A stretch of DNA of 64,000 nt from an uncultured Chloroflexia bacterium (GCA_963810095.1 CAWEMM010000009.1:352001-416000), one strand, 5' to 3'; counted from the stretch's first letter, positions 1,870 through 24,165 are shown. The notes: generated from the sequence alone by a model not told the origin. Program-made: numbers and translations.

Positions 1870-1906
1870 GGCGCTGCCATCCTGTCAGTAGGGGGAAGAG
1901 GACGTG

Positions 1907-2001: not shown

Positions 2002-2120
2002 ATGGCCGGCTACCCATGCCTAAGCCCGGTGATCGTTCTCCTAACCTTAACCGTGCTGCAACACAAAGCGGGCTGGCCTTCGGCCCCCGGCACGGTGCAA
2101 CCTCGCCACGGAGGAACTGG

Positions 2121-3490: not shown

Positions 3491-3575
3491 GGACGCAGAT
3501 CGAACTGATTCGACGGATCGACCTGATTTCAGCGAGAGATCATGCAGACCGGTCCGATCAGTTCTATCTGCGTCC
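3491..3575. repeat. Palindromic intergenic repeat, family A (CTGAT-periodic)
   Basis: GGACGCAGATCGAACTGAT ... ATCAGTTCTATCTGCGTCC inverted arms; related copies at 19797, 32494, 44988 and 45141. Confidence 0.75.
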
Positions 3576-5115
3576 TATTCGATATCAGCCCAGCAATCTG
3601 TTTTGCACGCCGGTCAGCTGGCGGGCGACGCGGTCGGTAAACGCCGAACCGCTCGGCGTAGAGGGGCGTCAGCGCCGTGTTTGGCTCGATGCGGCGCACG
3701 GGCGGCTGCAGCGCGGCGATGCCCGCTTCGATGCTCGCATACACGCCGGCACCCCAGCCGGCCAGCACCGCGGCGCCCAGCGCGGCCCAGCTCGAGTAGC
3801 TGGCAACTACGATGGGCACGTCGCCCACGTCCGCCAGGATCTGCGGCCAGATCGGGCTGCCCGTCGCGCCGCCCGACACCCGCAGCTCGTCCACCGCCAA
3901 CCCGGCCGTGCGCAGGTCTTCCAGGAACCACCGCACCTCGAACGCGCACCCCTCCAGGATCGCCCGGCTCATGTCGGCCCGGGTGTGCGCCAGCTCCAAC
4001 CCCGCAAAGGTCGTGCCCGGCACGCCGTCTGGCCCCTGTATCTGCGAAGAGAGCGGTAGGAACAGCAGGTTGTGACTGCCGGGCTCGCTCCCTGCGAGCG
4101 CCCCGTCGAGAAACGCGTAGAGCTGCCGCTTGTCGTATTGGGCCGCCGGGTCGGCCGACTGCCAGCCGTTCTGCAGCCACCAATCGACAATCGCACCAAA
4201 GCCACCGATGTACTGCGTCACCGTCCAGCGGTTCGTCACCGTGTGGAAGCTGATGTTGAGACCCGAGGGGATCACCGTCCGGTCGGGCCGTTCGGCCGTG
4301 CCCGTGATGGTCCACGCGGTGCCCGTCGAGAGCATGTAGCGCCCGGGGACGATGTTGCCCATCGCCATCGACGCGCAGACCTGGTCCATGCCGCCCGCCA
4401 CGACCGGGGTGCCCGCTGGCAGGCCAGTACGGGCGGCTACGTCAGCAGTGATCGGAGCGATGATCCGTCCCGCCCAGCCCAAGCCGGCCTGCGTGTGCCG
4501 GTCGACGCCCCCGAGCGCACACAACTCCTCATTCCAGCGCCCCTCATTGATGTCCACCAGCAGCATTTCGGCCGCGGCCGACAGGTCGGTGGCGAGAGAG
4601 CCTGTCAGGCGGCGGATGAGGAAGTCCGCCGGGCCGAGGTAGCAGGCGGCCGCGGCATGCACGTCGGGCCGGTTCTCCTTGAGCCATGCGATGCTCGGCA
4701 GCGGCAAGCCGGGGAAGGGGTGCCAGCCGCTGAGCCGGGTGATCGTGTCCGCGGTCCCGTCCGCGTACCACTGCTTCATCAGGGCGTTGCAGCGGGTGTC
4801 GAGCCACGTAATCATCGGGTAGACCGGGTCGCCGTTTGCGTCGGCCGGGATGATGGAGCCGCCCTGGGCCGCGAGCGCGAGTGCGAGGATGCGATAGCCG
4901 GGTCCCTCGCCCGCGGCGGCGGCCAGCTTCGCCAGCACGTCGAGGAGCGCCTGCCACACCAGCTCCGAATCCTGCTCGACCCAGCCCGGCTGGGGCGTGA
5001 GGAAGCCGTAGTCGTGGCTGGCAATGGCGATTTCGCCGCCGGCCGCGTCGAAGAGGATGCCCTTTGTCGATGAAGTGCCGATGTCGATTCCGATGATTGC
5101 GTCGCGCATGGTCAT
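3529..5115 (-). CDS. FGGY-family carbohydrate kinase (xylulokinase-like); exact 3' end uncertain
   Basis: [33 protein letters not shown] and [17 protein letters not shown] motifs. Confidence 0.9.
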
Positions 5116-5891
5116 GCCCCCTTCAAGACGGCGAGCGCTTCGCCGGCAGTCGCCCCGCCATGTACGATCGCCGCAATAGCAGCGGTCATACGCCGGGGGT
5201 CGTCCGCCTGGAACACGTTACGGCCGATGGCGACCCCGGCCGCGCCGGCCTGCCCCGCAGCCCGGATGCTCTCGAGCATCATTTCGGGCTGGTCCTGGCG
5301 CGCGCCGCCCAGGATCACCACGGGCACGTAACAGGTCTCGACCACCCGATCAAAGGGGGCCGCGTAGGGCACCTTAACCCAGTCTGCCCCTAACTCTGCG
5401 GCCACCCGGGCGCTCAGCGCGATATTCTCGACGGTGAAGAAGGCCGGTCCAGCGTCAAAACCGCCCGGCTGCATCTCTGCCAGTACGGGTAAGCCCCACG
5501 CGTGCGCCTCTGCGATGACGTGCGCCAGCGTCCGCAGTGTCTCGCGCTCCTGGGGCGTGCCGGGAAACGCCGAGACCACGACCGCGTCCGCGCCAATGCG
5601 CAGGGCATCCTCCACCGTGTAGAACTGGGCCCCCGGGCCCGATGCACCCAGCTTCGTCCCCCCGCCGTCTAGCCGCACGATCAAGCCGGCAGGGGCGAGT
5701 TCGTCGGCGAAGCGGGTGGCCACGCCGAAGCTCGTGAGAATGGCGTCCGCGCCGCCTGCAACAATTTGGCGTAGCGTGTCGCCCGGTCGTTCGATGCCAG
5801 GGATCGGCCCGTCGATCAATCCGTGATCGAATGCGACGATGACGGCTCGGCCGTCAGCGTTGAAAATGCGGCGTATGCGACGATTGAACAC
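5112..5891 (-). CDS. Class I aldolase, DhnA/LsrF family
   Basis: [17 protein letters not shown] (Schiff-base Lys) and GRNVFQ motifs; AGGAG RBS before GTG 5891. Confidence 0.88.
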
Positions 5892-5934
5892 GTTGCTCCT
5901 CAGGCTTCCTGTGTGAATGCCGGCGCGCGATGGT

Positions 5935-6018
5935 AACCACAAGGAACCAAAGACACGAAGGGACACAAAGCCCTGCCCGCCAACTTGGCGCATCTTTGGT
6001 TCTTCGTGTCTTTGTGTT
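5935..6018. repeat. Palindromic intergenic repeat, family B (CACAAAG/CACGAAG-periodic)
   Basis: ACCACAAGGAACCAAAGACACGAAGGGACACAAAG ... CTTTGGTTCTTCGTGTCTTTGTG. Confidence 0.7.
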
Positions 6019-6054
6019 CTGTTAGCAGCCATCTTCTATAGGAGACCTCTCCGC

Positions 6055-6819
6055 CTACCGGGGGCCCGCTTCCAGCACCCGCAGGCCCGCGTCGACCGGC
6101 AGGAGGATGCCGGTGATGTAGCTCGCTGCAGGCGACGCGAGGAAGACGGCCGCGGCGGCCAGTTCCTCCGGCTCGCCGTAGCGCTTGAACGGAATGAACC
6201 GCTCGAGCTCGGCCGCGACGGCCTCGGGCATCTTGCCCAGAAGCATTTCGGTGCGGAAGAGGCCGGGCGCGATCGCGTTGACGCGGATGTGATAGGGCGC
6301 CAGGTCGAGGGCCATGGCCTTGGTCAGGCTTTCCAGGCCGCCCTTGCTCGCCGCGTACGCGGTGCGCCCCGGGATGGTCTGCTGGGCCAGGATCGAGGTG
6401 ATGTGGATGATCGCGCCCTGCTGCCTGGGCGCCATGCGCCGGGCGACGAGTTGGCTCAGGTAAAACACGCCGCGCAGGTTTGTGTTCAACACCTTGTCCA
6501 GGTCGTCGAGATTGACATCCAGGAAGCGGTTGTGATCGACCGCGCCCGCGTTGTTCACGAGCACGCCAATGGGGCCGATGGCTTCGGCCGCGGCGACCAT
6601 CCGCTCGCAGTCTCCTGTCTGGCTGACATCCGCCTGGCACGGAGTGGCCAGGCCGCCCGCGGCCGCGATTTCGGCAACCGTCTCGGCTGCGCCGGCTTCG
6701 TCTGCCCGGTAGTTCACGATCACGTGCGCGCCCCGTGCGGCGAACGCCTTGGCGACGGCTCGCCCGATTCCCCGGGAGGCGCCGGTGACCAGTGCGACGG
6801 CGCCCGTAAACTCAGCCAT
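6055..6819 (-). CDS. Classical short-chain dehydrogenase/reductase (FabG-like)
   Basis: TGASRGIG, NNAG, YAASK and VNAIAPG motifs. Confidence 0.92.
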   Translation of the reverse strand: MAEFTGAVALVTGASRGIGRAVAKAFAARGAHVIVNYRADEAGAAETVAEIAAAGGLATPCQADVSQTGDCERMVAAAEAIGPIGVLVNNAGAVDHNRFLDVNLDDLDKVLNTNLRGVFYLSQLVARRMAPRQQGAIIHITSILAQQTIPGRTAYAASKGGLESLTKAMALDLAPYHIRVNAIAPGLFRTEMLLGKMPEAVAAELERFIPFKRYGEPEELAAAAVFLASPAASYITGILLPVDAGLRVLEAGPR

Positions 6820-7792
6820 TCCCGTTGCCTCCGGCTTTGCCGCCGAAGAACGAGCGTTTCAGCACGGCCACGTCGACATGGCCGGCCGAAAAGGTGCGGC
6901 CGGTGGTCAGGTTCGTCATGTGGAGCACGGCAGGGCGTGTGCATGTCGGCAGGGATCGCGTGGAAGTCGTAGTTCGCTTCCTGGTAGAGCTGCGAGAACG
7001 ACTTGCCGCCGATGCGGGAGGCCGAGGTGACGATTGCAGGCACGACCTGGGCGAGCAGGTCGTCCGTCCGCCTCGACGTACAGGCTCACCTCGCCGCCAT
7101 AGATCAGCGCGTCGTTGATCCGCCCGAACGAAGTCAGCTCGTCATGGGTCAGGGGGGGGATGGGCGCGACGCAGGAGGCGAAGCGGATGCAGCGAAGGTC
7201 GAACTCGGCCAATGCCAGCCGGTGCATGGTGAGTTCCACCACCGCGGGCAGGCACCTGCACGGTCGAGATCAGGCACGCGTGCTTGGAAGCGAGGATGTA
7301 CAGGTTCTCTGGCTGCAAGCCGCACGCGTCGGCCATCTTCTGCGCCATTTCCTCGGTGACCGGGCGGGTCATCTGCACGGTCACGACGCCCTCGTGATAG
7401 CGGTCCCGGTAGCTGATGTAGTCGAAATAGTGGTCGGGCTCGTGGTTGAGCGCGCGGGCCGGGCCCGAGAGCACGGGCGCGTCCGGTTCCTTCGCAAGGA
7501 CCCAGCCCGCCACCTGGCACCCCATGCAGGCTTCGAGCGCTCGGTTGACCATGACGCGGACGCCGGGCACCCGGATGTCGCCGAGGGGGAAGCTCTCGTA
7601 GCTGACCTCGGCCAGGTTACCGAGAGTCACCCGCGTGAAATACTTGGCCGCTTCCCAGCTGCCCGGCGCCTTCTGCCCCATGTCGATGAGCGTCGCACCA
7701 TTGGGGAAGTGCGAGACCTCGACCCCCAGCGCCTCGGGCGCGGCGAGGATCTCCCGGATCAGTTTCATGGTTTCGGCGTTGACACTTAGCAT
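6812..7792 (-). CDS. mch: Methenyltetrahydromethanopterin cyclohydrolase (Mch)-family protein, copy 1 (about 3 frameshifts)
   Basis: MLSVN...GATLIDMG, CQVAGW, LSGPARAL, STVQVPAR(V)VE, APIPP, GRINDALIYGG and GKSFSQLYQEANYDFHAI across ORFs 7142..7792, 6916..7242 and 6720..7043. Confidence 0.82.
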
Positions 7793-7834
7793 GTGGTCAC
7801 CCCTTTAGTGGTTTCCATGACGAGAGTCAGACGG

Positions 7835-7904
7835 AACCACAAAGGTTCACAAAGGACGATTCCTTCAGCCTTGTGGACCTTCGTGGCTTGGTGTCTTTGT
7901 GGTT
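7835..7904. repeat. Palindromic intergenic repeat, family B
   Basis: AACCACAAAGGTTCACAAAGG ... CCTTCGTGGCTTGGTGTCTTTGTGGTT. Confidence 0.7.
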
Positions 7905-8605
7905 AGCTTCGCGGTGTCAAGGAGCGTTTCTTGAAGGTCGGCCAGAAACTGGGCCGCGGTGGCGCCGTCGATGAAACGATGGTCGTAGCTGAGGCTGAAC
8001 CACGCCGTTTCGCGTGCCGTAACCTGGCCTTCCCAGATGACCGGCCGCAGCTTCGCCGCGCCGACCAGCAGGACCGCGCTCTCGGGCGGCCGCGGGATCG
8101 GGACGCCCCCATCGACGCCGTACATACCCAGGTTGCTGACGGTGAACGTGCCGCCCTCGATATCGACCATCTTCAGCTTGCCGCTGCGCGCGCGCGCCGC
8201 CCGGTCCTTCGCCGCCTCGTCGATCTCGAAGACTGACAGGGCCTGGCGCGTTGGGGATGACGGCCACGATCAGCCCGTCGGGCACCGCCACTGCCATGCC
8301 GAGATTGACCGGCTCGTAGAGCAGCATCTCGTCTTCCAGCAGTTCGGCGTTCAGCAGCGGATGCTGCGGGAGGTACGCGGCGACCGCGCACAGGATCAGG
8401 CTGTTGAGCGAGACCGGCGTGCCCTCGGCGGCCTGAGTACCGGCGCACGTCCTGCGCCGCCTGCAAGTCCACCTCGCGGCTGATCTGGCTCAGAGCGGCG
8501 GTGGCGACCGCAGCTTTCATGCCGCGCGCCATGGCCTTGCGCACCACGCCGAGCTTACGGGTTTCCCGAACCGGCACCCCGCGGCGGCGAGACCGTCGTG
8601 CCCAC
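7865..8605 (-). CDS. 2-oxoacid dehydrogenase E2 acyltransferase, catalytic domain only (frameshifted)
   Basis: VRKAMARGM, VNLGMAVAVPDGLIV, GGTFTVSNLGMYG and LSYDHRFIDGA across three frames. Confidence 0.8.
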
Positions 8606-8847
8606 TACGCCGCCTCTTCGATGATGCAGATGGGCGTCCCGACGGCTACTTCTTCCGTCCCCTCGGGCACGAGGATCTTGCTCAGCACGCCGCCGACGGG
8701 CGACTCGAGCTCGTTGGTGATCTTTTCGGTCGCAATTTCGACGAGAATCTCGCCTTGGGCCACCGAGTCGCCCTCGGCCTTGCGCCAGGCGCCAACGGTG
8801 CCCGAGTCCATGGTCAGGCCCCACTTGGGCATGATCACTTCAGTCAT
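8605..8847 (-). CDS. Stand-alone lipoyl-domain protein
   Basis: MPKWGLTMDSGTVGAW...EIATEKITNELESP (lipoyl-Lys motif); ends at a TAG after about 80 aa. Confidence 0.85.
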   Translation of the reverse strand: MTEVIMPKWGLTMDSGTVGAWRKAEGDSVAQGEILVEIATEKITNELESPVGGVLSKILVPEGTEEVAVGTPICIIEEAA

Positions 8848-8910
8848 GACGGAATCCTTTCGCGTTTCTCCCTGCCAAGTGCCGCGCACCTTGGAAGATG
8901 CCCCGCACTT

Positions 8911-9888
8911 TCAGCCCGCCATCACTTTGCGGACCGCGGCCTTGATGTCTTCCTTGCCCGGCAGCACGATCTTTTCCAGCGGCACGGAGAAGGGAATGGG
9001 CGTGTCTAGCCCGCACACCCGGGCCACAGGCGCCTTCAGCGACCGGAATGCCTCTTCGGAGATGACCGCGCTGACGTCCGACGCCAGGCTGCCGATCTTG
9101 GGCGCTTCGTTCGCCACGACCGCACGGCCCGTCTTGGTCACCGACTCCAGCACCGTCTCCGTATCCCAGGGGCGCAGGGTTCGGAGGTCCACAACCTCCA
9201 CCGAGATACCTTCCGCCGCAAGCTCGTTGGCCGCGGCCAGCGCTTCCTGCGTCATGCGCAGGGAGCCGACGACGGTGACGTCGGCGCCTTCACGCGCCAC
9301 GTTCGCCTTGCGCAGCGGCACCGTGTACTTCTCGTCGGGCACCTCGCCTTTGATGCGGTAAAGCGCCTTGTGCTCGAGGAAGAGGACCGGGTTGTCGTCC
9401 TCGATGCTGGCGATCATGAGCCCCTTCGCGTCGTAGGGCGTGGCCGGCCCAACGACCACCAGGCCGGGCACGTTCATAAACCAGCCTTCGACCGACTGCG
9501 AATGGTGTGGGCCGCCGCCGAAGCCGCCGCCCGCCGCGGTGCGCACGACGATCGGCGACTTGAATTGGCCGTCGAACATGTAATGCATCTTGGCCGCGTT
9601 GTTGACAAGCTGATCGTAGCACGTCGTCAGGAAGTCGGCGAACATGATCTCGGCGACCGGGCGCATACCCACCATCGCCGCGCCGACCGCGCTGCCGACG
9701 ATGGCCGCCTCGGACAGCGGCGTGTCGCGCACCCGCTCGTCGCCGTACTTGGCCCACAGCCCCTTGGTCACGCCGAAGTCGCCGCCCATGCGGCCGATGT
9801 CTTCGCCGAGCAGGAATACCTTGTCGTTCTCGGCCATCATCAGGTCGAGCGCGTTGTTCAGTGCCTGGACGAGGGTCATGGTCTTCAT
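8911..9888 (-). CDS. 2-oxoacid/acetoin dehydrogenase E1 beta subunit
   Basis: GEDIG, DTPLSEAAIVG, AEIMFADF, HHSQS, DAKGL and FLEHKALY motifs. Confidence 0.93.
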   Translation of the reverse strand: MKTMTLVQALNNALDLMMAENDKVFLLGEDIGRMGGDFGVTKGLWAKYGDERVRDTPLSEAAIVGSAVGAAMVGMRPVAEIMFADFLTTCYDQLVNNAAKMHYMFDGQFKSPIVVRTAAGGGFGGGPHHSQSVEGWFMNVPGLVVVGPATPYDAKGLMIASIEDDNPVLFLEHKALYRIKGEVPDEKYTVPLRKANVAREGADVTVVGSLRMTQEALAAANELAAEGISVEVVDLRTLRPWDTETVLESVTKTGRAVVANEAPKIGSLASDVSAVISEEAFRSLKAPVARVCGLDTPIPFSVPLEKIVLPGKEDIKAAVRKVMAG

Positions 9889-10860
9889 CGGGACGCAACC
9901 TCCCAGCCGACGTACACGTTGGCAGTCGCCTTGACCGGGTCGGGCTGCGGGCTCTGCATCGCGAAAGCGATCCAGCTCTCGACCAGCGCGTCGATCTCGG
10001 TCTTGATCTGGTTCAGCTCTTCCTCGGTGGCAATCGCCTGCGGCAGTCATGCGCTGCCGGGCCAGCATGATCGGGTCGTGCTCTTCGCGGAAGTAGCTTC
10101 ACCTCGTCCGCGGGGCGGAACTCGCCGCTGAACAGGCCCTGCCAGCGCCAGGTCTTGTATTCGACGAAGTACGGCCCCTTGCCGGCGCGGATGTGGGCCA
10201 CGGCCTCTTCGGTCGCCCGGTATGCGGCTGCGATGTCGTTGCCGTCGACCTGGACCGCAGGGATGCGGTACGCGGCGGCGAACTCGCACAGGTCACTCGT
10301 GGCGTGGCTGAACGCGACCGGGGTGGAGATGGCGTAGCCGTTGTTGACGCAGCAGTAGAGCACCGGCGCCTTCCACGTGCTCGCAAGGTTCATGCTTTCG
10401 TGCCACTCGCCGCGGCCCGAGGTCCCGTCGCCAACGATCACCGCCGCGACGCGGTCCGTCCCCTGCAGCTTCCAGCCCAGCGCCGCGCCCAGGGCCGTCA
10501 CCATCATCGACCCTTCGACGGCGTTGTTGCCGAAGTTGCCCACCGACGCGTCGGCGGAGTGCAGCGAGCCGCCTTTGCCGCTGCAAACGCCCGTCGCCGG
10601 CCGAACAGCTCGGCCATGATGCGCTCGCCGGGTGTGCCCGCGAGGATCAGCAGGCCGTGACAGCGGTGGTCGGGGAAGAAGCAGTCGGTGTGCTGCAGGT
10701 TCGCAGCGATGGCCGCCTGCGTCGCCTCCTGGCCCAGCCCGGTGTGGAGCATGCCGGGCACGTTGCCGCGTTTGAACTCGCGCTCCAGGCCGAGCTCAAA
10801 CGCCCGGACCCGGCACATGTCGCCATAGAGCTTGATTGCAAGTTCGGGATTCAAATCCAT
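9885..10860 (-). CDS. 2-oxoacid/acetoin dehydrogenase E1 alpha subunit (frameshifted)
   Basis: GMLHTGLGQEA, DHRCHG, TPP motif GDG...NNGYAIST and VDGND. Confidence 0.85.
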
Positions 10861-10874
10861 GGAGCCCCTCCTGT

Positions 10875-11937
10875 TTATGGTACTCCGAATGATGCAATGG
10901 CCTCGGCAATGATCGGGTAGCTGATCTGCCAGCGATCGAGTGGTACGTTCTCCGAGACCTGGATCTGCAGGCGGCCCGTGTGTCCGGCCGCAGCGAGGAT
11001 TTCGTCAGCCGCCGCCCGGATGACTTCGGGATCCGCAAGGTGTACGGAGCCGGGGAAGTTGACCCACAGCCGCTTTTCGGGCCACATAGCGGCCGCCTCG
11101 GCGACCGAGGTGTCGCAGTCGGGCAAAGGCGTGAAGGAGTCGAGCCCGCCGACCCCCGACGTGCCGATTTCCTTCCACAGCGGTTTCAGCATGCCGTCCA
11201 TGTGGACGTAAAGCGGCCTGCCGGTTTCGGCGAGCAGGTCGGCCAGCTCGTTGTAGAGCGAGGCGCAGTATTTCCGGAACCGGGCCGGTCCGATAGCTGG
11301 CGCAGTGATGTTGTCGGGGATGTCGATGTAAGGGGCCGGCGACAGGCGGGCGATCTCGAAGATCTGCCGCGCCCGGCGCACCAGCAGCTCAATCGTGTGC
11401 TCCACGTGGTCGGGCCAGTCGGCCAGGTGCCAGGACAGCGGCCCGAGGCCTACCCACTCAACCCAGAGCTGCTGCCAGGGCGTGCGCTCGCACTCGGCCT
11501 TCGGGAAACCGTCGTCGCCGAGCTCGGCACAATCCTCGAAAGTACTGCTCGTAGTTGTCGTGAACGGTCGAATCCTCCAGATAGCTCCAGAGGATTTCGT
11601 ATTCCTTGCGGGTTTCGATGAAGTGCTTCCGCGCGGTGGAACTGTCAAAGACGGGTTCGAATGCGCGTAACTCGACGAGGTCGCCCTTGGGCGTGTGCAG
11701 CGTGTTCCGCTGCCACTTGGCGCCTGCTTCGTGGAAGAACTCGCTTTCCCACGCACAGTTGGGGTGTTCGATGCGGTAGATGGGCCGATACCGGATGAGG
11801 CCGATGTTGCCGTGTCCGAGCAGGTCGAAGGCCTCCTGGGGCGGGAACATAATGTCGTACATCGCAAAGGGAACGCGGTCCATCTCGCGGCCCTGGACGA
11901 CCGCCAGCATGCGTTCGCGCATCGTCATCGTCTTCAT
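10875..11937 (-). CDS. Uroporphyrinogen decarboxylase/MtaA-like TIM-barrel protein of unknown function (one frameshift near 11540)
   Basis: MTMRERMLAVVQGREMDRVPF N-terminus; IPDNITAPAIGPARFRKY, YVHMDG and DSFTP segments. Confidence 0.6.
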
Positions 11938-12037
11938 TTGCGCACCCCTGGGCTAGTAGCGGAGCGGCAGCGGGCTTCGCCTGCGGAAGTCCTGCCCAAC
12001 AGATGTAGGTCAGTGGTGGCCAGAATTATCACGCGCC

Positions 12038-12133
12038 ATGTTAGCACGGGCCCTGCCGCTTGTCAAGCGATGGTTTACGAGGGGCCAGTTTTTCCGGCTA
12101 CCAGTTGACAAGGCGCCTTAAGTCTGCTATTAT
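12038..12133. promoter_or_regulatory. Divergent sigma70-type promoter pair with palindromic operator
   Basis: Plus strand TTGACA(12105)-N17-TATTAT with TGn; minus strand TTGACA(12066)-N17-TAACAT with TGn; TGTCAAG-N5-GTTTACG at 12061-12079. Confidence 0.7.
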
Positions 12134-12326
12134 CCCCCCGGTGACGCCTAAGGAACCTCCAGCCACTCCCGGCGGCGTCGCGACTTGGCCAGTCCACCAC
12201 CAGTCGGTCACCGTTTCGCAAAAGATCGGAGGACGCCCTACACGATTTCGCCTTCTTCGGCCCTAAGTTCGGACGAACCCGCACTGTCGACAAACAAACC
12301 TACATCTGTGAGTCACAGGAGGAAAG

Positions 12327-13385
12327 ATGGCATCTCGTCGCTTTTCGATCACGTTGCTTCTTGTCGTAGTTGCATCGCTCGTGCTGTCTGCGTGCGCCCC
12401 CGCAGCCGCACCCGCCCCCGCTGCGGCCCCCACTACGGCCCCGGCTGCCGCGGCTAAGCCCTTCAAGATCGGCCTGGTGCATCCCAGCCCGATCACCGAC
12501 TCCTGGAGCGGCCTGGCGTGGGCCGGCCTGAAAAGGCCAAGAACGACCTGGGCGCCGAGATCGCCAACGTCCAGGTGGGCGAGCCGGCCGGCTTCGAGAA
12601 AGCCTTTAGCGACTTCGGCGCTCAGGGCTACGACGTCGTCGTGGGCCACGGTTTCCAGTACAACGACGCGGCCGCCAAGGTCGCCCCGCAGTTCCCCAAG
12701 ACCTACTACGTCATCATGAACGGCAGCAGCACAGGCCCCAACCTGACCGGCATCAACACGATCCCGGGCTACGTCCAGATGATGTACGTGGCCGGCATGG
12801 CCGCAGGCAAGATCTCCAAGACCCACCAGTGCGCAGCGTTCACGCTCGAAATGCCGGCGACCAAGCTCCCCATGCAGGGCTTCGTGCAGGGCTTTGAGAG
12901 CGTCGCCGGCAACAAGTGCAGCCTCGTTACCCTGAACGACCAGAACGACGTAGGGGCGGCCAAGGAAGCGGCCTTGCAGGCCATGAACGACGGCGCGGAC
13001 ATCATCACCGCGAACGCCAACCTGGCCGGCTCGGGCGTGTGGCAGGCCGTGAAGGACAACGGCGCGGACAAGGTCTATGCGGTCGGCACGGTCGGCGACG
13101 TGAACGAACAGGCCCCGAAGAACATGCTGTTCAGCGCCACGCAGGACGTGCCCATGTCCATCTTCAACGCGGTCAAGGCGATCAAGGATGGCACGATCAA
13201 GCCCGGTTCGGGCATCGAGCTGCGCTTCGAGAACAAGGGCGACGAGGCCGCGTACCCCATCGCTGTGGAACTCCAACGTCTCCACCTCGGTCATGACGCC
13301 TGAGCTCAAGGCTGAGATCGAGGCCAACCTGAAGAAGATCCAGACCGGCGAGTTGAAGGTTCCCGAAATCTGGAAGCAGCAGTAA
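12327..13385 (+). CDS. BMP-family ABC substrate-binding lipoprotein (nucleoside/purine-type; 2 frameshifts)
   Basis: Lipobox LSAC, Ala/Pro linker, KIGLVHPSPITDSW, GYDVVVGHGFQY and GADII. Confidence 0.85.
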
Positions 13386-13404
13386 CTTCCAGGCGGACGA
13401 AGAC

Positions 13405-13500
13405 TCTTCACCACAAAGGCACGAGGACACTAAAGGTTCACGAAGCGTTTGGTGCATTGGCTGTGTGAACCTTTGAGCCTTGGTGCCTTAGTGGTGAAGA
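13405..13500. repeat. Palindromic intergenic repeat, family B
   Basis: TCTTCACCACAAAGGCACGAGG ... CCTTGGTGCCTTAGTGGTGAAGA inverted arms. Confidence 0.8.
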
Positions 13501-13545
13501 GCCGACACGAGTTGAGATCCATCCGGGGAATATGAGCATGCCCAC

Positions 13546-14632
13546 ATGAGCGTCCCAGCGGTTAGCAGCGAGCCGTCCTCCGCCGCGGTGAGAAACCAGG
13601 AATTGCTGCTCGCACTTTGGCGGAACCTGGTGCTCCCGGTCCTCTCGATCCTCGCGGCCCTGGCCGTCGGTGCAGCTTGTGCTGGTGCTGGCCGGCTACA
13701 ACGTTGGCGCGGCCTACGGCGCGCTCTGGCAGGGCGTATTCGGCAACACCCGGAACATGGGCGAGGCCTTCCTGCGCGCCACGCCCCTGATCCTGGTCGG
13801 CGCAGGCATCGCCGTTGCCTTCCGCTGCGGGCATCTGGAACATCGGCGCCGAAGGCCAGTTCTACCTGGGCGCGATCGCAGGCACCTTCATCGGCCTGCA
13901 GGTCGGTGGCCTGACCCCGTTCATCGCCATTCCGCTCGGTCTTCTCGCCGGCTTCCTCGCGGGCGGCGCCTGGGCCGAGCATCGCCGGCTGGATGAAGGT
14001 GCGTCTCGGCCTGAACGAGGTCGTCACCACCATCATGCTCAACTACATCGCGCTTGGCGTCGTCAGCTTCATGGTCAACGGGCCGATGCAGGAGAAGATC
14101 CACGCCAACCCGCAAACGGACCAGATCGCCAAGAGCATGTTCCTGCCCCTCATCTGGCCGCCCACCCGCGTCCACCTCGGCTTTGTTTTTGCCGTGATCG
14201 TGGCGGCCGTGCTTGCCTTCATCCTCTTCCGCACCCGCTGGGGCTATGCCATCCGTGCGGTCGGCTTCAATCCCGAGGCCGCCCGGCACGCCGGCATTAA
14301 CGTCAGCCGCCAGTTCCTCCTCGCCATGCTGCTGAGCGGCGGCGCGGCCGGCATTGCCGGCGCGGTCGAGATCATGGGCGTCACCCAGCGGCTCTACCCC
14401 GATCTTTCGCCCGGCTACGGGTTCACGGGCATTGCGGTGTCGCTGCTGGCCAACAACCATCCCGCTGGGCACGATCCTGTCGGGCTGGCTGTTCGGCGCG
14501 CTGGGCTCGGGCTCGCAGATGATGCAGCTCACCGCCCGCATCCCTGACGTCATGATTTACATCATCCAGGGCCTGGTGATCCTGTTCCTGGTCTCGTTCC
14601 GCATTCTGGGCGCGCGGATCGGCCGGAAGTAG
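13546..14632 (+). CDS. ABC transporter permease (CUT2/nucleoside type), frameshifted
   Basis: ATPLILVG, NIGAEGQ, NEVVTTIMLNYIA, GYAIRAVGFNPEAARHAGI and GYGFTGIAVSLL. Confidence 0.88.
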
Positions 14633-14645
14633 GAGGAGACGCCCC

Positions 14646-15575
14646 GTGGCATTGCTGCTGGTCCTGCAATCACTGCTGCAAGCCTCCCTGCGCATGGCGG
14701 CTCCGCTGATTTACACCTCCGTGGGCGAGACCTACAACGAGCGGGCGGGCGTCGTCAACATCGGGCTGGAAGGCATCATGCTCATCGGTGCCGTGCACGG
14801 CTTTCGGTGTCACGTATTATCTGAAGTCGATCGGCCTGGCCGTGCTCGCCGCCGCGCTGGTCGCCGGGTTCTTCGGCCTGATCTTTGCCTATGTGACCGT
14901 GACCCTCCAGGCCAACCAGATCGTCACCGGCACGGCCATGAACCTGATCGGCCTGGGCCTTTCCAGCTTCGTGTACCGCGTGGCGTTCCGTGACATGCCC
15001 GGCGCCCGCATCGAGCCGCTGGCCCGCGATCTCCATCCCCGTCCTGAGCAAGATTCCATTCATCGGCCCCATCCTGTTCGAGCAGAACGTGCTCGTCTAC
15101 GGCGCGCTGGTGCTGACGATGGTCGCGGCGCTGGTCATGAACAAGACCATGCTCGGCCTGTCCATCCGTGCGGTCGGCGAGCATCCGCGGGCCGTCTCCA
15201 CGGCCGGTCTGACCGTCTCGCGCCTGCGCTACGGCGCGGCGATCTTCGGTGCGATGATGGCGGGCATCGGCGGCGCGTACCTGCCGATCGCCTGGGCCAA
15301 CACATTTGTCGAGAACATGGTCGCCGGCCGCGGCTTCATCGCCCTCGCGATCGTCGTCTTTGGGCGCTGGACGCCCGTCGGCGCGTTCCTGGCCAGCATC
15401 CTCTTCGGCTTCACCTACGCGCTCCAGCTGCGCCTGCAGACGCAGAATCTGCGCGTCGCGTACCAGTTCCTGCAGGTGCTTGCCCTACATCGCCACGCTC
15501 GTGATCATGGTCATCCTGCGCGGCCGGTCGACACAGCCAAAAGCCATGGGCGTACCCTATTCGGAGCGAGCATGA
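14646..15575 (+). CDS. ABC transporter permease (CUT2/nucleoside type), frameshifted
   Basis: ERAGVVNIGLEGIML, ANQIVTG, RAVGEHP, GRGFIALA and LPYIATL. Confidence 0.88.
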
Positions 15576-17158
15576 CAGCCACCGACACTCCGGCCCACAG
15601 CACCGTCGGCCGCACTCCCGTGCCCCGCCTGCGGGTGCGCGATGTCTGCAAGAGCTTTGGCACGCTCAGGGCCAACGATCACATCTCGCTCGACGTGATG
15701 CCTGGCGAGGTGATGTGCCTGCTGGGCGAGAACGGCGCGGGCAAGTCGACGCTGATGAACATCGTCTATGGCCTGTACCGTGCGGACCAGGGGCGGATCG
15801 AGATCGACGGCCGCCCGGTGACCATCCGCTCGCCCCACGAGGCCATCGACCACGGCATCGGCATGGTGCACCAGCACTTCATGCTCGTTCCGCCGCTCAC
15901 GGTGACCGACAACATCATCCTCGGGCACCCGGCCCTTGGTCGGTCGCGGTTCGGTCCTCAACGATACGGCGGCGGTCGAGCAGCGCGTCAGCGAGGTGGG
16001 CAAGCGATATGGCCTCAAGATCAAGCCGGACGCCCGCGTTTCAGAACTCAGCGTGGGCGAGCAGCAGCGCGTGGAGATCGTCAAGGCGCTTTACCGCGGG
16101 GTCAGCCTGCTGATCCTCGACGAGCCGACGGCCGTCCTGACGCCGCAGGAGACGACCGATCTTTTCCACACGCTGCGCAGCCTGACCGCGGACGGGCTGG
16201 CCGTCATCTTCATCACCCACAAGCTCAACGAAGTCATGGCCGTCAGCGACCGGGTGACGGTGCTGCGCGACGGGAAGGTCGTCGGCCAGCGCCTGACCAG
16301 CGAGACTTCGATCCACGACCTCGCGGAGCTGATGGTGGGCCGCGAAGTGCAGATGACCATCGACAAGCCCGCCGTGGACTGCGGCGACGAACTGCTGCGT
16401 CATCGAGAACCTGACGGTCGAGGGCGAGCACGGGCGGAAGGCGCTGGACCGCCTCTCGCTGCTGCGTCCACTGCGGCGAGATCGTCGGCGTCGCCGGGGT
16501 GGACGGCAACGGGCAGCGCGAGCTCGCCTTGGCGATCGCGGGCTTGCTGAAGCCCGCGTCCGGGTCGATCCGCCTGGGCACGGCCGACATCGCCGGCAAG
16601 TCGCCGTATGAGATCATCCATGCCGGCTTGCGCCACATCCCGGAAGACCGCCACGCGGCCGGGCCTCGTGCTCGATTTCTCGGTCGCCGATAACCTGATC
16701 CTGAAGCGCTCGGACCAGCCGCCGTTTTCGCGGCGAGGCGTGCTGCAGCCGCGGGCCATCCTCGACTATGCCGCAGCGCACCGTCAAGAAGTTCGACGTG
16801 CGCACGCGCTCGGTCAATACCGAGACCAAGAACCTATCGGGCGGCAACCAGCAGAAGGTCGTGCTGGGCCGCGAGATCGACCAGGACCCCCGGTTGCTCA
16901 TCGCCGCGCAGCCGACCCGCGGCCTGGATGTCGGCGCGACCGAGTACATCCACCAATGCCCTGCTGGCGCAGCGGGCGCGGGGCGTCGCAATCCTGCTGA
17001 TCTCGACCGAACTGGAAGAGATCCTTGCCCTGAGCGACCGCATCGCCGTGATCTACGAGGGCCGCATTATCGGCGAAGTGCCGGGCGACCGGGCAAACAC
17101 GCAGAAGATCGGCCTGATGATGGCCGGCGTCGCGGGGCGAAGATGCTCGCCGCACTAA
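15572..17158 (+). CDS. ABC transporter ATP-binding protein with tandem ATPase domains, frameshifted
   Basis: GENGAGKSTL, GMVHQHFML, LSVGEQQRVEI, LDEPTAVLTPQE, LSGGNQQK and QPTRGLDVGA. Confidence 0.9.
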
Positions 17159-17184
17159 GGCCGACCGATGAAGGAAATGACCAC

Positions 17185-18551
17185 ATGGCAAACATACTGA
17201 TTGAAAACGGCGTCGTCCTGTCGCTCAACCCGCAGCGCGACCTGTTTGCGCCGGGCTACGTCCTGATCGAAGGCGACAAGATTGCCGCGGTTGGGGCCGG
17301 ACGAGTGCGCCGCCCGAAATCGCCGCGCGGGCCGAACGTGTCCTGGACGCGTCGCGCAAGGTCGTCATGCCGGGCATGATTAACATCGCACGAGCACCTC
17401 TTCCAGACCTTCGTGCGCGGCCTTTCCGATAACCGGCCGCTGATGGACTGGCTGCGGGATATCGTGTGGCCGATCAGCGCGGCCATGACCGCGGACGACA
17501 TGTACCTGGCCGCAATGGTGGGCCTGGTCGAAAACCTCCACGGCGGCGCCACTGCGGTGATCGACCACCAGTATCTGCACACGGACCCGGGCAACGACGA
17601 TGCAGCGTGCCGGGCCGCCGCAGAGTTCGGCATGCGCTACCGGCTGGCGCGTGGCTGGACGGACTGAACGCGCCCGCTTCCCTGCTCGACTCGAGCGATC
17701 ACATCGTGGCGGAGACGGGCGCATCCATGACGCCTGGCACGGCAAGGCCAACGGCCGCATTATGGTCGAGTTCGCACCGGGCGTGCCGTGGGGGTGCAGC
17801 GAGGCGACGATGCGCCGGCGCCTACGAGGTTGCGCAAGGAGTGGGACGGCGGCATGCACATCCATGTTGCCGAGACGCGCGTCGAGATCGAGATGGACCG
17901 CGAGACGAAGGGTATGGGCCACATCGAGTGGCTCGATTCGCTCGGCCAGTTGGCCCCGGGCACCCAACTCGTGCACAGCGTCTGGCTCTCTGACCGCGAG
18001 ATCGATCTGATCGAGGGGTCGCGGGTCGGTGGTCGTCCATTGCCCGGCCAGCAACATGTACCTGGGCTCGGGAATTTGCCAGGTGAAGCGGCTGCACGAG
18101 CGCGGCATTCCGGTGGCGCTGGGGCTCGACGGCGCGTGCAACAACGGCTTGGGGATGATCGACCTGCTGAAATGGGCCGCCAATCTGCAGCAGGTGGCGC
18201 ACTTGACGCGCCCGCCCTCAAGCGCGATGGACGTGCTCGATATGGCTTGCCTGGGCGGCGCGGCCGCGATCGGCCAGACCGCGGTCCTCGGCAGCCTCGA
18301 ACCCGGCAAGAAGGCCGACGTCGTCCTGGTCGATCGCGATTCCACCCGGCTTGGCCCTCGCCACGCCGCAGAGCCTGCCCGTTGCTTTGGTCTATACGGC
18401 CAGCAGCGCGGACGTCGACACGGTGATCGTCGACGGCGAAATCCTGCTGCAGGACGGCAAGGTGTGCGGGATCGACGAAGCCGCATTGGTGGCTGAGGCC
18501 CGGTCGGCCTGGGAGGCCGTGCTGGCCCGTGCGGGCGTTTCAGCCGCATAG
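17185..18551 (+). CDS. Amidohydrolase-family deaminase (MtaD/AtzA/guanine deaminase-like), several frameshifts
   Basis: VMPGMIN..HEHLFQT, HIHVAET, VHSVW, VHCPASNMYLGSG, LGLDG and GSLEPGKKAD. Confidence 0.85.
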
Positions 18552-18638
18552 AGTCTTATCATTGTCGTCCCCGTTCCCGGGTATCGCGATCAAGGATGAA
18601 GTGGCCGGGAGAGGACTCGGGGGAAGAGGTCAGGGAGA

Positions 18639-19788
18639 ATGAGCGTGCCCGGCAAGAGTTACGATGTCATCATCATTGGCGGCGGGTTCATCGGTGTCGC
18701 CACGGCTTACTATCTCGCCCGGCGCGGGACGAGCGTCCTCCTCATCGAGGGCAAGAGTCTCGGCAGCGGCTCCACGGGCGCCTGTGCTGGTCGCGCCCAG
18801 GTGTCCGAGTGCCATCCCGGCCTGCATCTCGACCTGGTCCAGCTCGGTCTGCAGCGCCTGGAACACTTGCAGGAAGAGCTGGGCTACGACTTCGAGTGGC
18901 GGCGCTTCGGCAACATCATGCTGGTCGACACCGAGCACGACTGGCAGGGGTGGGCCGCACAAAGCGCATTGCTGGCAGAGCGTGGCATCCCGGCCGCCAT
19001 GTGGGACGCGCAGACGCTCAAGGAAGCCGAGCCCGCGGTCCGCACCGACGACTTGATGGGCGCTGCGTGGTGCCTCGAAGGTCACGTCAACCCGCTCAAA
19101 TACTGTTGGGCCTACGCCCGCGCCGCCCGCCGTTTCGGCGCGGAGATCCATACGCAGGAACCGGTGATCTGCATCGAGCGCGACGGGGAGCGGATCACCG
19201 GCGTGCGGACGCAGCAGGGCTTCTACGGCGCGGGGCAGGTTCTCGTGGCCGCCGGCGCCTGGACCGCTAAGGTGCTCCGGACGGTGGATGTCGAGCTGCC
19301 CCTCAAGTCGACCAACGCGATGGCCATGATCAGCGAGAAGCTGCCACCCGTGCTCAACAACCACGTCGGGGTGGGCAACTTCTACGAGACCATCCACAAG
19401 AAAGCCAAGGCGGTTGCGCTCGGCGTGCTGCAGTTCCAGAACGGCTCGCTCTACATCGCGGAAGCGGTAGAGATGGGGACCATGGTTCGAATGGAGGCGA
19501 CGCCATGGGGACCGCCCGGCATGGCCCAGGTGCTGCTCGACCGTGTGCCCGCGTTCGCAGAGGGTCCACGTCGTCCGCTCGTGGGCCGCACCGAGCCCCT
19601 TCCTCGAGGACGAGCAGCCGGGGGTTGGCTACATCCCGGGCTTCGACAACCTCTTCCTGGCAACCTGCTTCCACCTGCACGTCACCACCGTGCCCGTGTT
19701 GTGCGACATTATCGCGAGCATGGCCCGCGACGAACCCACGGAGCTCGACGTCTCGGCATTCAGCCCCGCCCGGCTGTGGCCGTCGTAA
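18639..19788 (+). CDS. FAD-dependent amine/amino-acid oxidoreductase (DAO/HcnC-like), second copy; frameshift near 19560
   Basis: IIGGGFIG, GSGSTGACAG, GHVNP and VAAGAWT; C-terminus VRSWAAPSPF...AFSPAR in ORF 19543..19788. Confidence 0.85.
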
Positions 19789-19796
19789 AAGAACGC

Positions 19797-19879
19797 GACG
19801 CTGATTGAACTGATTGAACTGATTCGCATGATCCCTTTTAGAGATCATGAAGATCAGTTCGATCGGTTCAATCAGCGTC
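19797..19879. repeat. Palindromic intergenic repeat, family A
   Basis: GACGCTGATTGAACTGATTGAACTGAT ... ATCAGTTCGATCGGTTCAATCAGCGTC. Confidence 0.8.
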
Positions 19880-19911
19880 CTATTTCCGATCAGTTTGAGG
19901 AGTGCGAACGC

Positions 19912-20893
19912 ATGCAACCGCTTTCGATGGAGAATTACAGCGTCAACAAAGCCGCCGTCGCGATGATCAAGGACTCCATCGCGCGCGCGGACGAGCTGCA
20001 GATCAAGGCCTGGCGCGCTGAGTGCGGCGCCATGCTGGTCGACATGGGCCTGAACTGTCCCGGCAGTTGGAAGGCGGGCCAGGTGTTTGTTGAGGCCGGC
20101 TACGGCGGGCTCGGCAAGGCAACGTATGGCGTCTTCGATCTGCCGCCGTTCCGCGTGCCTACGCATCGACGTCTGGGTGGACCACCCGGTGATCGCGGTC
20201 GTCGCATCGCAGGCCGGCTGCTGGGAGTTGGGCAAGGGTGAGTTCGCCCAGATCGGCTCGGGCCCTGCCCGGGCGGTCGCGCTCGCAGATCGCTGGTCGC
20301 ACAGCGGCTACGTTGATCATGCCGACGAAGTCGTCGTCCAGCTGCAGACGCGGCGCATCCCGTCCGACGACCTGTGCCTCCAGGTGGCTGACCTCTGCCA
20401 CGTCAAGCCCGAGAATGTGTATGTCGTCTTCGCGCCCACCGCGTGCCTGGTGGGTGCGGTGCAGGTGGCCTCGCGCACGGTCGAGCAAGTCATGGTCAAG
20501 CTCTTCCTGCACGGCTTCGACATTCATTCGGTGAGGCATGGCTGGGGGACCGCGCCGGTCGCGCCGCTGACGCCCGACGAGGGTGAGGCGATGGGGCGCG
20601 TCAACGACTGCCTCTTCTACGGGGCGACGACGGTGCTCTACTCCGACGCACCCGACGAGGAAATCGAGCCGGTGCTGAACCGGCTGTGCTTCGACGTCAA
20701 TGCGGGCGAGTACTGGGGCATGCCCTTCGCCCAGATCTTCGAGCGCTTCCACCACAACTGGTTCGAGGTGCCCGACCTGATCGACTCGCCCGCGCACGTG
20801 GTGATCAACAGCCTGCGCACCGGGCATACCTTCGCTGGCGGGCAGATCAATCGCGAGGTGCTCCAGCGGTCGTTCTTCGGCCGAGCGGCTTGA
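19912..20893 (+). CDS. mch: Mch-family cyclohydrolase, copy 2 (one frameshift near 20160)
   Basis: YSVN...GAMLVDMG, SQAGCW, GSGPARA, APTACLVGAVQVASRTVE, APVAP, AMGRVNDCLFYG, GMPFAQIF and TGHTFAGG. Confidence 0.85.
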
Positions 20894-20972
20894 CAGGCGC
20901 TCGGGTTAGGCGTTGGGGCGGGCTGCGCTCGCCCCAACAGCGTTTTGTCCGCGTCTTTGGGCAGGGGTAGGA

Positions 20973-22133
20973 ATGGACCTCAGCGTTCGCATCGGCAGCC
21001 TCGAACTCGCCAACCCGGTCATCATTGCGTCGGGCCCGCCCGGCATCGACGGGGCCGCCATCAGGCGTATGGCGGCGGGCGCACCCGGTGCGATCGTCAC
21101 CAAGTCCATCGACCTGAAACCCTCGCCAGGCCAGCGCCTGAGCCTCTCCTACGCCGTCCCGGGCCGCAAGACGCTCGTGCTCACCGACCTCTGGTCCACC
21201 CACAGCCTCGAGGAGTGGTGCGAACGCGAGCTTCCCCTTGCCAAAGCAGGCGGCGTTCCGGTCATCGTCTCGCTGCAGGCGGTTAGCCTCACGCCAGCCG
21301 AGGACATCGCCCGGATGTCGCAGATGGCGGTGGCGGCCGGCGCGGACGCGATCGAGCTTTCGGCGTTCGGCATGTCGCCTAACGTGGTCGACGGCTCAGG
21401 CATCGGCGCGGTGCAGGACCCGGCGCGCACCTTCGACGTGATCCGGGCCGCCAAGCAGGCGGTGCGCGTGCCGGTCATCGCCAAGCTCCTGCCCGAGCCC
21501 TCCAACCTGATCGACCTGGTGCGGGCATGTGAGGCCGGCGGGGCCGATGCGATCGCCTCCCGCGACTCGGTATTCCCGGCCATCGCCTTTGACATACGCA
21601 CCCGCAAGCCTCGGGTGGCGCGCACCTTCGGCGGCTGGATGCCCGAGCTGTCGGGCCGCGCGATCAAGGAAATGGCGCTGGGTTATGTGGTGGAGATTGC
21701 CAGGCGGACGACCTTACCCGTTATCGGTGTGGGCGGCGTGATGACCTGGGAGGATGCGGTCGAGATGATGATCGCGGGCGCGTCTGCGGTCGGCATCTGC
21801 ACGGCGGCAATGGTCGAGGGGCCGAAGGTGAGCGGCAAGTTTCTGCGAGGCATTTCCGGCTACCTCGCGGAACAAGGGGTGACGCTGGAAGCGCTGCGCG
21901 GCAGTGGCCTGGAGGGGATGCGCCAGGTAAACGAGCTGGCCGAGCAGCCGCTGACCATGTGTGTGGACACCCAGGCGTGCAACCTGTGCGGGGTGTGCCT
22001 GCCGGTCTGCCCGGTGCAGGCGATTCACGAGGGCGACGGGCACATCTACATCGCGCCCGAAGAGTGCATTGCCTCCGCGTTCTGCGTCGAAAACTGTGCC
22101 CGGCATGCCATCAGTGTCGTAGCGCCGGCGTGA
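20973..22133 (+). CDS. Dihydropyrimidine dehydrogenase PreA/dihydroorotate dehydrogenase-like flavoprotein with C-terminal ferredoxin domain
   Basis: LANPVIIASGPP, IVTKSI, PVIAKL, SGRAIKEMAL and IGVGGV; C-terminal CNLCGVCLPVCP. Confidence 0.8.
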   Translation: MDLSVRIGSLELANPVIIASGPPGIDGAAIRRMAAGAPGAIVTKSIDLKPSPGQRLSLSYAVPGRKTLVLTDLWSTHSLEEWCERELPLAKAGGVPVIVSLQAVSLTPAEDIARMSQMAVAAGADAIELSAFGMSPNVVDGSGIGAVQDPARTFDVIRAAKQAVRVPVIAKLLPEPSNLIDLVRACEAGGADAIASRDSVFPAIAFDIRTRKPRVARTFGGWMPELSGRAIKEMALGYVVEIARRTTLPVIGVGGVMTWEDAVEMMIAGASAVGICTAAMVEGPKVSGKFLRGISGYLAEQGVTLEALRGSGLEGMRQVNELAEQPLTMCVDTQACNLCGVCLPVCPVQAIHEGDGHIYIAPEECIASAFCVENCARHAISVVAPA

Positions 22134-22144
22134 CGCCTATCTGA

Positions 22145-22187
22145 AACCTCCGAGGCCTCAGCAGAGTTGACACAAGCCTCGGAGGTT
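22145..22187. terminator. Hairpin between convergent genes (possible terminator or REP-like element)
   Basis: AACCTCCGAGGC / GCCTCGGAGGTT perfect 12-bp stem with 19-nt loop. Confidence 0.5.
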
Positions 22188-22200
22188 CGTTCGTCCCGGT

Positions 22201-22994: not shown

Positions 22995-23021
22995 TGTCGT
23001 GCTCCTTCCGAGTGACGCCTT

Positions 23022-23095
23022 AACACAAAGGCACAAAGACACGAAGACAGTGAAACACGAACGAGCTGACGTACTTCCTTTGTGTCTTTGTGGTG
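23022..23095. repeat. Palindromic intergenic repeat, family B
   Basis: ACACAAAGGCACAAAGACACGAAG ... CTTTGTGTCTTTGTGGTG. Confidence 0.7.
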
Positions 23096-23099
23096 ATCT

Positions 23100-24125: not shown

Positions 24126-24165
24126 TGCTGACCTCCATAGTATCAGGCGCGTAGCCCGCAACGCT

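Follow-up and report, generated by a model that had tools for sequence, protein, structure and literature searches.

Two Mch-family genes in one genomic island

We analysed a 64,000-nucleotide stretch of DNA from an uncultured Chloroflexia bacterium (the window; G000:C9:352001-416000, in a source genome, G000, of 6.13 Mb, 16 contigs and ~66% G+C) and found that it holds two genes of the Mch family, whose reference member is methenyltetrahydromethanopterin cyclohydrolase (Mch; EC 3.5.4.27; PF02289, TIGR03120; PDB 1QLM, 4FIO, and 4GVQ). These genes, here called Mch1 and Mch2, are the only Mch genes in G000 and lie on opposite strands; an earlier note on this DNA had pointed to them, and matches to PF02289 bear it out. 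Judged by their sequences, both are paralogues from a separate bacterial clade of the family, which we term clade N.

6812 to 7792, minus strand: Mch1, Mch-family cyclohydrolase of clade N (PF02289; read through three single-base frame changes; 69% identical to the ortholog at L022:2044-3003)
19912 to 20893, plus strand: Mch2, Mch-family cyclohydrolase of clade N (PF02289; one extra base at 20164; 88-90% identical to L021:7355-8338 of the same-genus genome G007)

The PF02289 profile matches Mch1 in three pieces, at 7142-7792 (E 9e-50, profile positions 1-180), 6916-7242 (E 6.6e-16, 181-239), and 6720-7043 (E 1e-4, 249-285), and Mch2 in two, at 19828-20241 (E 5e-14, 1-69) and 20087-20893 (E 2e-72, 57-311), so that the pieces in the window reach over profile positions 1-285 and 1-311, respectively; intact orthologs match over 1-311 with 307-310 bits, beyond the Pfam gathering score, which confirms the family assignment. 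Both genes also match TIGR03120, the largest Mch2 piece in the window reaching 222 bits by itself, and on this model the orthologs score 272, 270, and 256 bits as against 355-418 bits for the canonical proteins of G036, a genome of the same class (cut-off 228.8 bits). A search of the ESM Atlas returned matches to Mch clusters only. All of the motifs named in the earlier note are present in both genes: SGPARA, Q-x-x-x-R-x-x-E (as QVPAR/VVE and QVASRTVE), and GR-x-ND (within GRINDALIYG and GRVNDCLFYG). The pair is as divergent as that note had held, with CQVAGW in one gene vs SQAGCW in the other and 32.6% identity between the intact orthologs.

All 11 Mch1-clade sequences compared have the Gln, Arg, and Glu of Q-x-x-x-R-x-x-E, and across clade N these residues are kept in at least 96% of sequences; the Arg and Glu are reportedly catalytic in the Mch of A. 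fulgidus. When we compared the 37 alignment columns in which 80% or more of the sequences on the canonical side of the family agree, the canonical majority residue was kept in 30 by the Mch1 clade and in 29 by the Mch2 clade. Three columns are replaced clade-wide (numbering of the canonical G036 protein): E157 by Q in 98% of clade N, D297 by P, and F301 by H or D.

Frame changes and gene integrity

Neither stops nor residue losses occur at the joints where the two Mch genes change frame. Mch2 carries a single additional base, at 20164, across which residues 84 and 85 of the ortholog are contiguous, and in Mch1 there are three +1 shifts, near 7240, 7066, and 6935. Frame changes are present in 7 of the 12 genes that are syntenic with G007 (11 in total within ~16 kb, window 13.5-29.3 kb), and the FolD match elsewhere in the genome (G000:C6:936276-936778) is also split into adjoining pieces. 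As an independent check, contigs of four public runs (X1, X2, X3, and X5; low depth, labelled freshwater sediment metagenome) were aligned to window positions 6000-22200. Some of the short-read contig pieces are identical to the window over 234-375 bases, and every indel listed is a letter that is extra in the window (27 further indels stand outside this list): the one at 6936 in Mch1 is absent from three X5 contigs, that at 8373 in the gene for E2 from an X2 contig, that at 10096 in the gene for E1 alpha from X2 and X3 contigs, and that at 14464 in a permease gene from X1 and X5 contigs, and all four coincide exactly with frame-change sites. Two gaps occur in an X5 piece that spans 6920-7170, a stretch in which two of the three Mch1 shifts are located.

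Because frame changes are widespread and short-read contigs lack the extra base at several sites, we read the breaks in the Mch genes as assembly errors: both genes are probably intact in the organism, interrupted by single-base assembly insertions, with a small residual doubt. It is very unlikely that both are instead functionless, decaying pseudogenes with real frameshifts. Such decay would fit with Mch1 having three frame changes and Mch2 one, and with the sites near 7240 and at 20164 falling outside the independent-read pieces listed, but the neighbouring genes and FolD are broken in the same way, the listed indels (including 6936 in Mch1) are extra letters of the window at frame-change sites, the joints are clean, and Mch2 is 88-90% identical to the intact G007 ortholog. 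The genome is estimated to be 88.5% complete with 4.8% contamination; the assembly contains many single-base insertions, and its completeness may therefore be underestimated.

Absence of the methanopterin pathway

The earlier note had placed both genes outside any one-carbon (C1) context of tetrahydromethanopterin (H4MPT), having looked at the window; this holds genome-wide. Profile searches of G000 gave no match for Fae, FTR, Mpt_N (MtdA/B), or beta-RFAP synthase, and TIGR00144, PF09176, and PF01913 had no match in G000, G007, G021, or G221. The last three are relatives with the same Mch types as the window, of which G021 is 98% and G221 100% complete; in a further relative, G196, FTR (PF01913) was the sole marker tested and had no match. 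The same searches found beta-RFAP synthase, Mpt_N, and FTR in the control G036, where an H4MPT cluster surrounds two Mch genes and includes DUF2193, Mpt_N, DUF1464, ATP-grasp, Amidohydro_3 (FhcA-like), GXGXG (FhcC-like), and CitG-like genes. No H4MPT genes were found as neighbours in the clade-N Mch loci examined. FolD is present in G000.

Because the organism thus lacks the means to make or use H4MPT, the substrate of Mch1 and Mch2 is probably something other than methenyl-H4MPT. That they are ordinary methenyl-H4MPT cyclohydrolases whose remaining pathway is missing from an incomplete assembly is extremely improbable. Such a reading could draw on the incompleteness of G000, on the scores of the orthologs, which lie above the TIGR03120 cut-off, and on the existence of H4MPT clusters in relatives of the same class; it would have to account for four absent markers in G000, three in the nearly or fully complete G021 and G221 beside a positive control, for the neighbours never being H4MPT genes in the loci examined, and for the position of both proteins on the non-canonical side of the tree (below).

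The relatives that carry H4MPT clusters (G036, G019, and G011) have a second Mch paralogue of their own (L017:8067-9023, L020:6516-7550, L023:16651-17850, and L024:9725-10726), in which the motif Glu is replaced by Ala (ARVVAT or ARAVAT) and GR-x-ND by ALAND, AHAND, or ARAND; in G036 it directly follows the DUF2193 gene. This Ala-bearing paralogue may be inactive or have another function.

A separate bacterial clade

A HMMER search of 1.84 billion representatives gave 945 Mch-family clusters. We built two quick, unrooted trees, one of 141 rows (those of the best 150 representatives that are full-length, Mch1-clade samples, and genome-locus proteins) and one of 154 rows (the same set with named proteins added); the sample is biased toward Mch2-like proteins, and its rows are without haloarchaeal Mch. 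Both trees split with SH-aLRT 99 into a canonical side and clade N (45 rows in the first tree, 55 in the second), and Mch1 and Mch2 fall outside the canonical side, as the phylogeny proposed in the earlier note was meant to decide. Clade N contains Mch1, Mch2, and their orthologs together with proteins named by their source as Oscillospiraceae, Halanaerobiales, Clostridiaceae, and Acidimicrobiia, and thus spans Chloroflexota, Acidimicrobiia, and Bacillota. All 13 rows from non-H4MPT contexts or taxa lie inside it; seven proteins of verified H4MPT clusters and the Methanocaldococcus Mch lie on the opposite side of the split. Within clade N, Mch1 and Mch2 are not sisters. A bimodal distribution is also seen in the class itself, where Mch occurs in 24 of 301 genomes and the Pfam scores of full-length matches fall at either 293-310 or 357-455 bits.

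Mch1-type proteins are common: a set of 5.8 billion proteins gave 176 matches, the best 120 of which show 47% identity or more, and with the Mch1-clade alignment as query we confirmed 133 loci among GTDB species genomes. The 80 of these that were kept come from Chloroflexota (Anaerolineae and Caldilineales), Actinomycetota (Acidimicrobiia), and one genome titled Gammaproteobacteria. The Mch2 type is rarer, with 78 matches listed at 54% identity or more and the next at 43%; all six named matches are "Chloroflexi bacterium". The occurrence of the two genes as a pair exceeds chance, as it recurs in G007, G196, G221, and further contigs; the two types share one contig in the window, G221, and G196, and, as matches to both fall on contigs of equal length, apparently also in several metagenomes.

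Gene neighbourhood of Mch1

On the minus strand, Mch1 belongs to an operon in the order E1 alpha, E1 beta, E2, Mch1, short-chain dehydrogenase/reductase (SDR), DeoC-type aldolase, and FGGY kinase, in which the E1 proteins depend on thiamine pyrophosphate (TPP).

3529 to 5115, minus strand: FGGY-family sugar (pentulose-type) kinase (Pfam FGGY_N and FGGY_C; best NCBIfam match xylulokinase, below cut-off)
5112 to 6032, minus strand: DeoC/LacD-type class I aldolase, LsrF/ADH-synthase-like (Pfam DeoC; NF005556 at 229 vs a cut-off of 241; the same family is found in the G221 cluster)
6055 to 6819, minus strand: SDR oxidoreductase that is conserved beside Mch1 (Pfam adh_short on the ortholog; 68% identity to the SDR of G021)
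7865 to 8900, minus strand: E2, 2-oxoacid dehydrogenase acyltransferase with a lipoyl part, frameshifted (tblastn identity of 70-73% to the G021 E2; Pfam 2-oxoacid_dh on the ortholog)
8911 to 10068, minus strand: E1 beta, TPP-dependent, pyruvate dehydrogenase (PDH)/acetoin-dehydrogenase-like (80% identical to the G021 ortholog; Transket_pyr and Transketolase_C; NF006667 at 355 vs a cut-off of 321)
9894 to 10860, minus strand: E1 alpha, in three frames (pieces 82-85% identical to the G021 ortholog; Pfam E1_dh)
10875 to 11867, minus strand: URO-D-like protein, a weak match between the E1 alpha and Bmp genes (Pfam URO-D, E 1.2e-6; 77-78% identical in L036 and L037)

Much of this arrangement is conserved. 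Among the 49 loci of at least 17 kb that we used for neighbour counts, E1 alpha and E1 beta accompany Mch1 in 47 and the SDR in 46; less constant are the E2 catalytic domain (21/49), in place of which some loci have a lipoyl domain alone, a deaminase-type amidohydrolase (19/49), and a regulator of the helix-turn-helix (HTH)-cupin kind (18/49). In addition, a luciferase-family gene resembling Mer (methylene-H4MPT reductase) lies in the flank of 51 of the 80 Mch1-clade loci, in most cases immediately downstream of Mch1. It scores best on two Mer models (156-199 bits, below cut-off), other models for luciferase-like monooxygenases (LLM) reaching at most 96 bits. These loci (L068:11814-12881, L043:10890-12044, and 49 others) belong to Acidimicrobiia and some Caldilineae, and often have a second SDR and a free-standing lipoyl-domain protein in place of the full E2. 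A tblastn search found no such gene in G000, and it is absent from the nearest relatives of the window.

The Mer-like gene bears on the main rival explanation, which applies especially to the Mch1 clade: that both proteins, or at least Mch1, are cyclohydrolases of methenyl-tetrahydrofolate (or of another folate-like pterin) and process C1 units that the island would set free, for instance through oxidative demethylation of the DAO type. We regard this as possible but rather unlikely. The frequent Mer-like LLM gene would suit it, as would the retention of the catalytic residues and of most canonical-conserved columns, and there is a precedent, since tetrahydrofolate has been proposed as the cofactor of a haloarchaeal Mch (HVO_2573) and Mer (HVO_1937) in PMC8305020. 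That assignment, however, is put forward there as a proposal only, G000 was found to contain no Mer-like gene, and its FolD is already at hand.

Gene neighbourhood of Mch2

Mch2 is transcribed in the opposite direction, in an operon in the order Bmp/PnrA-like binding protein, two permeases, ATP-binding cassette (ABC) ATPase, amidohydrolase, DAO flavoenzyme, Mch2, and a DHOD/PreA-like flavoprotein. The genes from 22204 to 29336, on the minus strand, converge on it.

12458 to 13303, plus strand: Bmp/PnrA-like substrate-binding protein of an ABC importer (Pfam Bmp, E 1.3e-28; 80% identical to the G221 Bmp)
13516 to 15572, plus strand: two BPD_transp_2 permeases with four frame changes (Pfam/ortholog match; the 14464 indel is the one absent from X1 and X5 contigs)
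15561 to 17131, plus strand: double-domain ABC ATPase (ortholog and Pfam)
17017 to 18542, plus strand: deaminase-type amidohydrolase, COG0402-like, in three frames (Pfam Amidohydro_1; HxH and HxxE motifs; 58% identical to the G007 ortholog)
18636 to 19779, plus strand: DAO-family FAD amine oxidoreductase (Pfam DAO, E 1.7e-56; 86% identical to the G007 ortholog)
20913 to 22133, plus strand: DHOD/PreA-like flavoprotein with a C-terminal 4Fe-4S domain, accessory (Pfam DHO_dh and Fer4; NCBIfam matches below cut-off)
22204 to 23006, minus strand: xylose-isomerase-like TIM-barrel protein (also in the G221 cluster)
23100 to 24353, minus strand: D-2-hydroxyacid dehydrogenase family protein (Pfam 2-Hacid_dh_C)
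24172 to 26872, minus strand: aldehyde dehydrogenase and Fe-alcohol dehydrogenase (ortholog and Pfam)
26897 to 28617, minus strand: HcnB/SoxA-fragment-like flavoprotein (Pyr_redox_2, BFD 2Fe-2S, SO_alpha_A3) and a small Fer2_4 protein (Pfam)
28782 to 29336, minus strand: HTH-cupin regulator (of the same kind as that adjoining Mch1 in the 18 loci)

The set of amidohydrolase, Mch, and DAO is present in the window, G007, G196, and G221. In a wider survey of 13 metagenome loci (39-66% G+C), found with a Clostridiaceae-type clade-N protein, both the amidohydrolase and the DAO adjoin Mch in nine and at least one of them does so in all 13, the remainder being short contigs; genes of a Bmp-type ABC importer occur in L121 and L117, and in L121 the ATPase, Bmp, and two permease genes stand directly upstream of the set. 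The best NCBIfam matches of the amidohydrolase are 5'-deoxyadenosine, 8-oxoguanine, and guanine deaminases and TRZ/ATZ, all below cut-off, and those of the DAO protein to ThiO and SoxB are far below it. The DHOD/PreA-like gene begins 20 bases after Mch2; it has no counterpart at this place in G007 (L021) and among the 80 Mch1 loci was found only in L038. At the left edge of the island lie a second, frameshifted DAO-like gene (744-1875, minus strand), 29-36% identical to the DAO beside Mch2, and a gene for a UbiD-family decarboxylase (1977-3473, plus strand).

Together with the DAO, the HcnB/SoxA-fragment-like flavoprotein and the Fer2_4 protein presumably resemble three-subunit amine dehydrogenases (of the HcnABC, opine-oxidase, and hydroxyproline-dehydrogenase kind). 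The two are possible partner subunits of the DAO beside Mch2, which may itself belong to a complex of this kind as one of its subunits.

A DAO-family enzyme flanking clade-N Mch is also what one would expect if C1 units were passed to tetrahydrofolate. Yet no GcvT-type folate-binding gene was found near clade-N Mch genes in the four genomes checked (4/4), and the SoxA-like protein matches the soxA model only at positions 169-596 of 996, which leaves the folate-binding end uncovered. Nor would a tetrahydrofolate role account for the linkage, across phyla, to a deaminase and a nucleoside-type importer, or for one island containing two paralogues of 33% identity.

Proposed function

We see about an even chance that Mch1 and Mch2 act as non-H4MPT cyclic-formamidine cyclohydrolases in the breakdown of an imported N-heterocycle. 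This role is favoured because the genes are linked across phyla to an importer of the nucleoside type, a deaminase, and a flavoenzyme that oxidises amines, and because two diverged paralogues occupy one island. Both proteins have most likely retained the reaction of the family, in which a cyclic formamidinium is hydrolysed to an N-formyl amine, as the conserved Gln, Arg, and Glu lead one to expect; they would interconvert a cyclic formamidine or formamidinium with the ring-opened N-formyl amine. One could then envision a single uptake-and-breakdown island for an N-heterocyclic compound, probably nucleoside-, purine-, or pterin-like, in which Mch2 would work with the deaminase-type amidohydrolase and the DAO-type flavin amine oxidoreductase behind the Bmp-type ABC importer, Mch1 would work in a second module with TPP-dependent E1 alpha/beta, lipoyl E2, and SDR, and the sugar-type kinase, aldolase, and isomerase nearby would handle the carbohydrate part.

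Several points weigh against this proposal. The intact orthologs exceed the cut-off of the NCBI Mch equivalog model (TIGR03120), and with 29-30 of the 37 canonical columns kept, the proteins may still recognise a pterin-C1 adduct as head group; the Mer-like gene in 51 of 80 Mch1-clade flanks likewise fits a C1 chemistry on a carrier. The functions given here to the catalytic residues are those reported for A. fulgidus Mch. The genome that lacks the H4MPT markers is only 88.5% complete, and the listed contig pieces leave two frame-change sites (near 7240 and at 20164) uncovered. Finally, reaction type, nature of the substrate, and order of steps are all inferred.

A more specific form of the N-heterocycle proposal, doubtful at present, is that clade-N Mch proteins provide a hydrolytic ring-opening route for purine- or pterin-type nucleosides imported via Bmp in Chloroflexota, Acidimicrobiia, and Bacillota. 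Here Mch would hydrolyse the formamidine or formamidinium carbon of the base, such as imidazole C8 or pyrimidine C2, carbons that would be especially reactive in cationic N-methylated bases, and Mch1 and Mch2 would open two different rings. The deaminase would remove the exocyclic amine, the DAO would oxidise the secondary amine exposed by ring-opening (an N-methyl or glycosyl-amine bond), and kinase, aldolase, E1, and SDR would consume the sugar part. Ectoine, creatinine, thiamine breakdown products, biopterin side-chain cleavage, and riboflavin were also considered as substrates, and no test spoke in their support.

The proposal in the earlier note that the Mch fold has been repurposed therefore stands in part: there are Mch genes outside an H4MPT context, in a separate clade, with catabolic and uptake gene sets that recur across phyla. 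Its further claim, that two cyclic amidine intermediates are the substrates, is hypothetical, and a tetrahydrofolate-type C1 role is possible.

Mch serves as a marker for C1 metabolism linked to methanopterin and is automatically annotated as such, and source databases label clade-N proteins Mch. Our results describe a large, well-separated bacterial Mch clade in organisms without methanopterin, of which the Mch1 type by itself accounts for at least 133 species-level loci, and whose genes are tied to those for a deaminase, a flavin oxidase, and an importer, or to those for a TPP enzyme and an SDR. Many "Mch" annotations in metagenome-assembled genomes of Chloroflexota, Acidimicrobiia, and Bacillota, and the C1-pathway inferences drawn from them, are thus probably wrong. 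We found no literature on Mch-family proteins in non-C1 catabolism, and "methenyltetrahydromethanopterin cyclohydrolase" is absent from the accessible portions of two 2025 papers on anaerobic purine or urate degradation; hydrolytic, Mch-based breakdown of N-heterocycles would be an undescribed route. Clade N offers a testable entry either to such a route of N-ring breakdown or to a new folate-type C1 module.

Comparison with known systems

One precedent is the haloarchaeal HVO_2573, like Mch1 and Mch2 an Mch-family protein in an organism without methanopterin, for which a Mer homologue has been proposed as partner, much as the Mch1 clade often has a Mer-like neighbour (PMC8305020, accessible part). 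It differs in that G000 is without a Mer-like gene and in that a context of deaminase, DAO, and importer goes unmentioned in the same part of that paper.

With canonical Mch, the two proteins share a size of ~320 aa, the Q-x-x-x-R-x-x-E, GPAR, and GR-x-ND motifs, and a full-length match to the M. kandleri enzyme (1QLM; 240 bits, E 3e-70, for Mch2 and 221 bits for Mch1), although 1QLM matches a canonical protein from the same class with 340 bits. They are set apart from it by a host that in the marker searches has neither H4MPT biosynthesis nor H4MPT C1 genes, by their separate clade with its lower model scores and three replaced near-invariant residues, and by neighbours that are deaminase, DAO, Bmp importer, E1/E2, and SDR rather than Fae, Mtd, or Fhc. 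FolD/FchA, IMP cyclohydrolase, and the GTP cyclohydrolases also hydrolyse a cyclic formamidine carbon to give an N-formyl amine, as is proposed for Mch1 and Mch2; their folds are unrelated to that of Mch, so that here the likeness is one of chemistry only.

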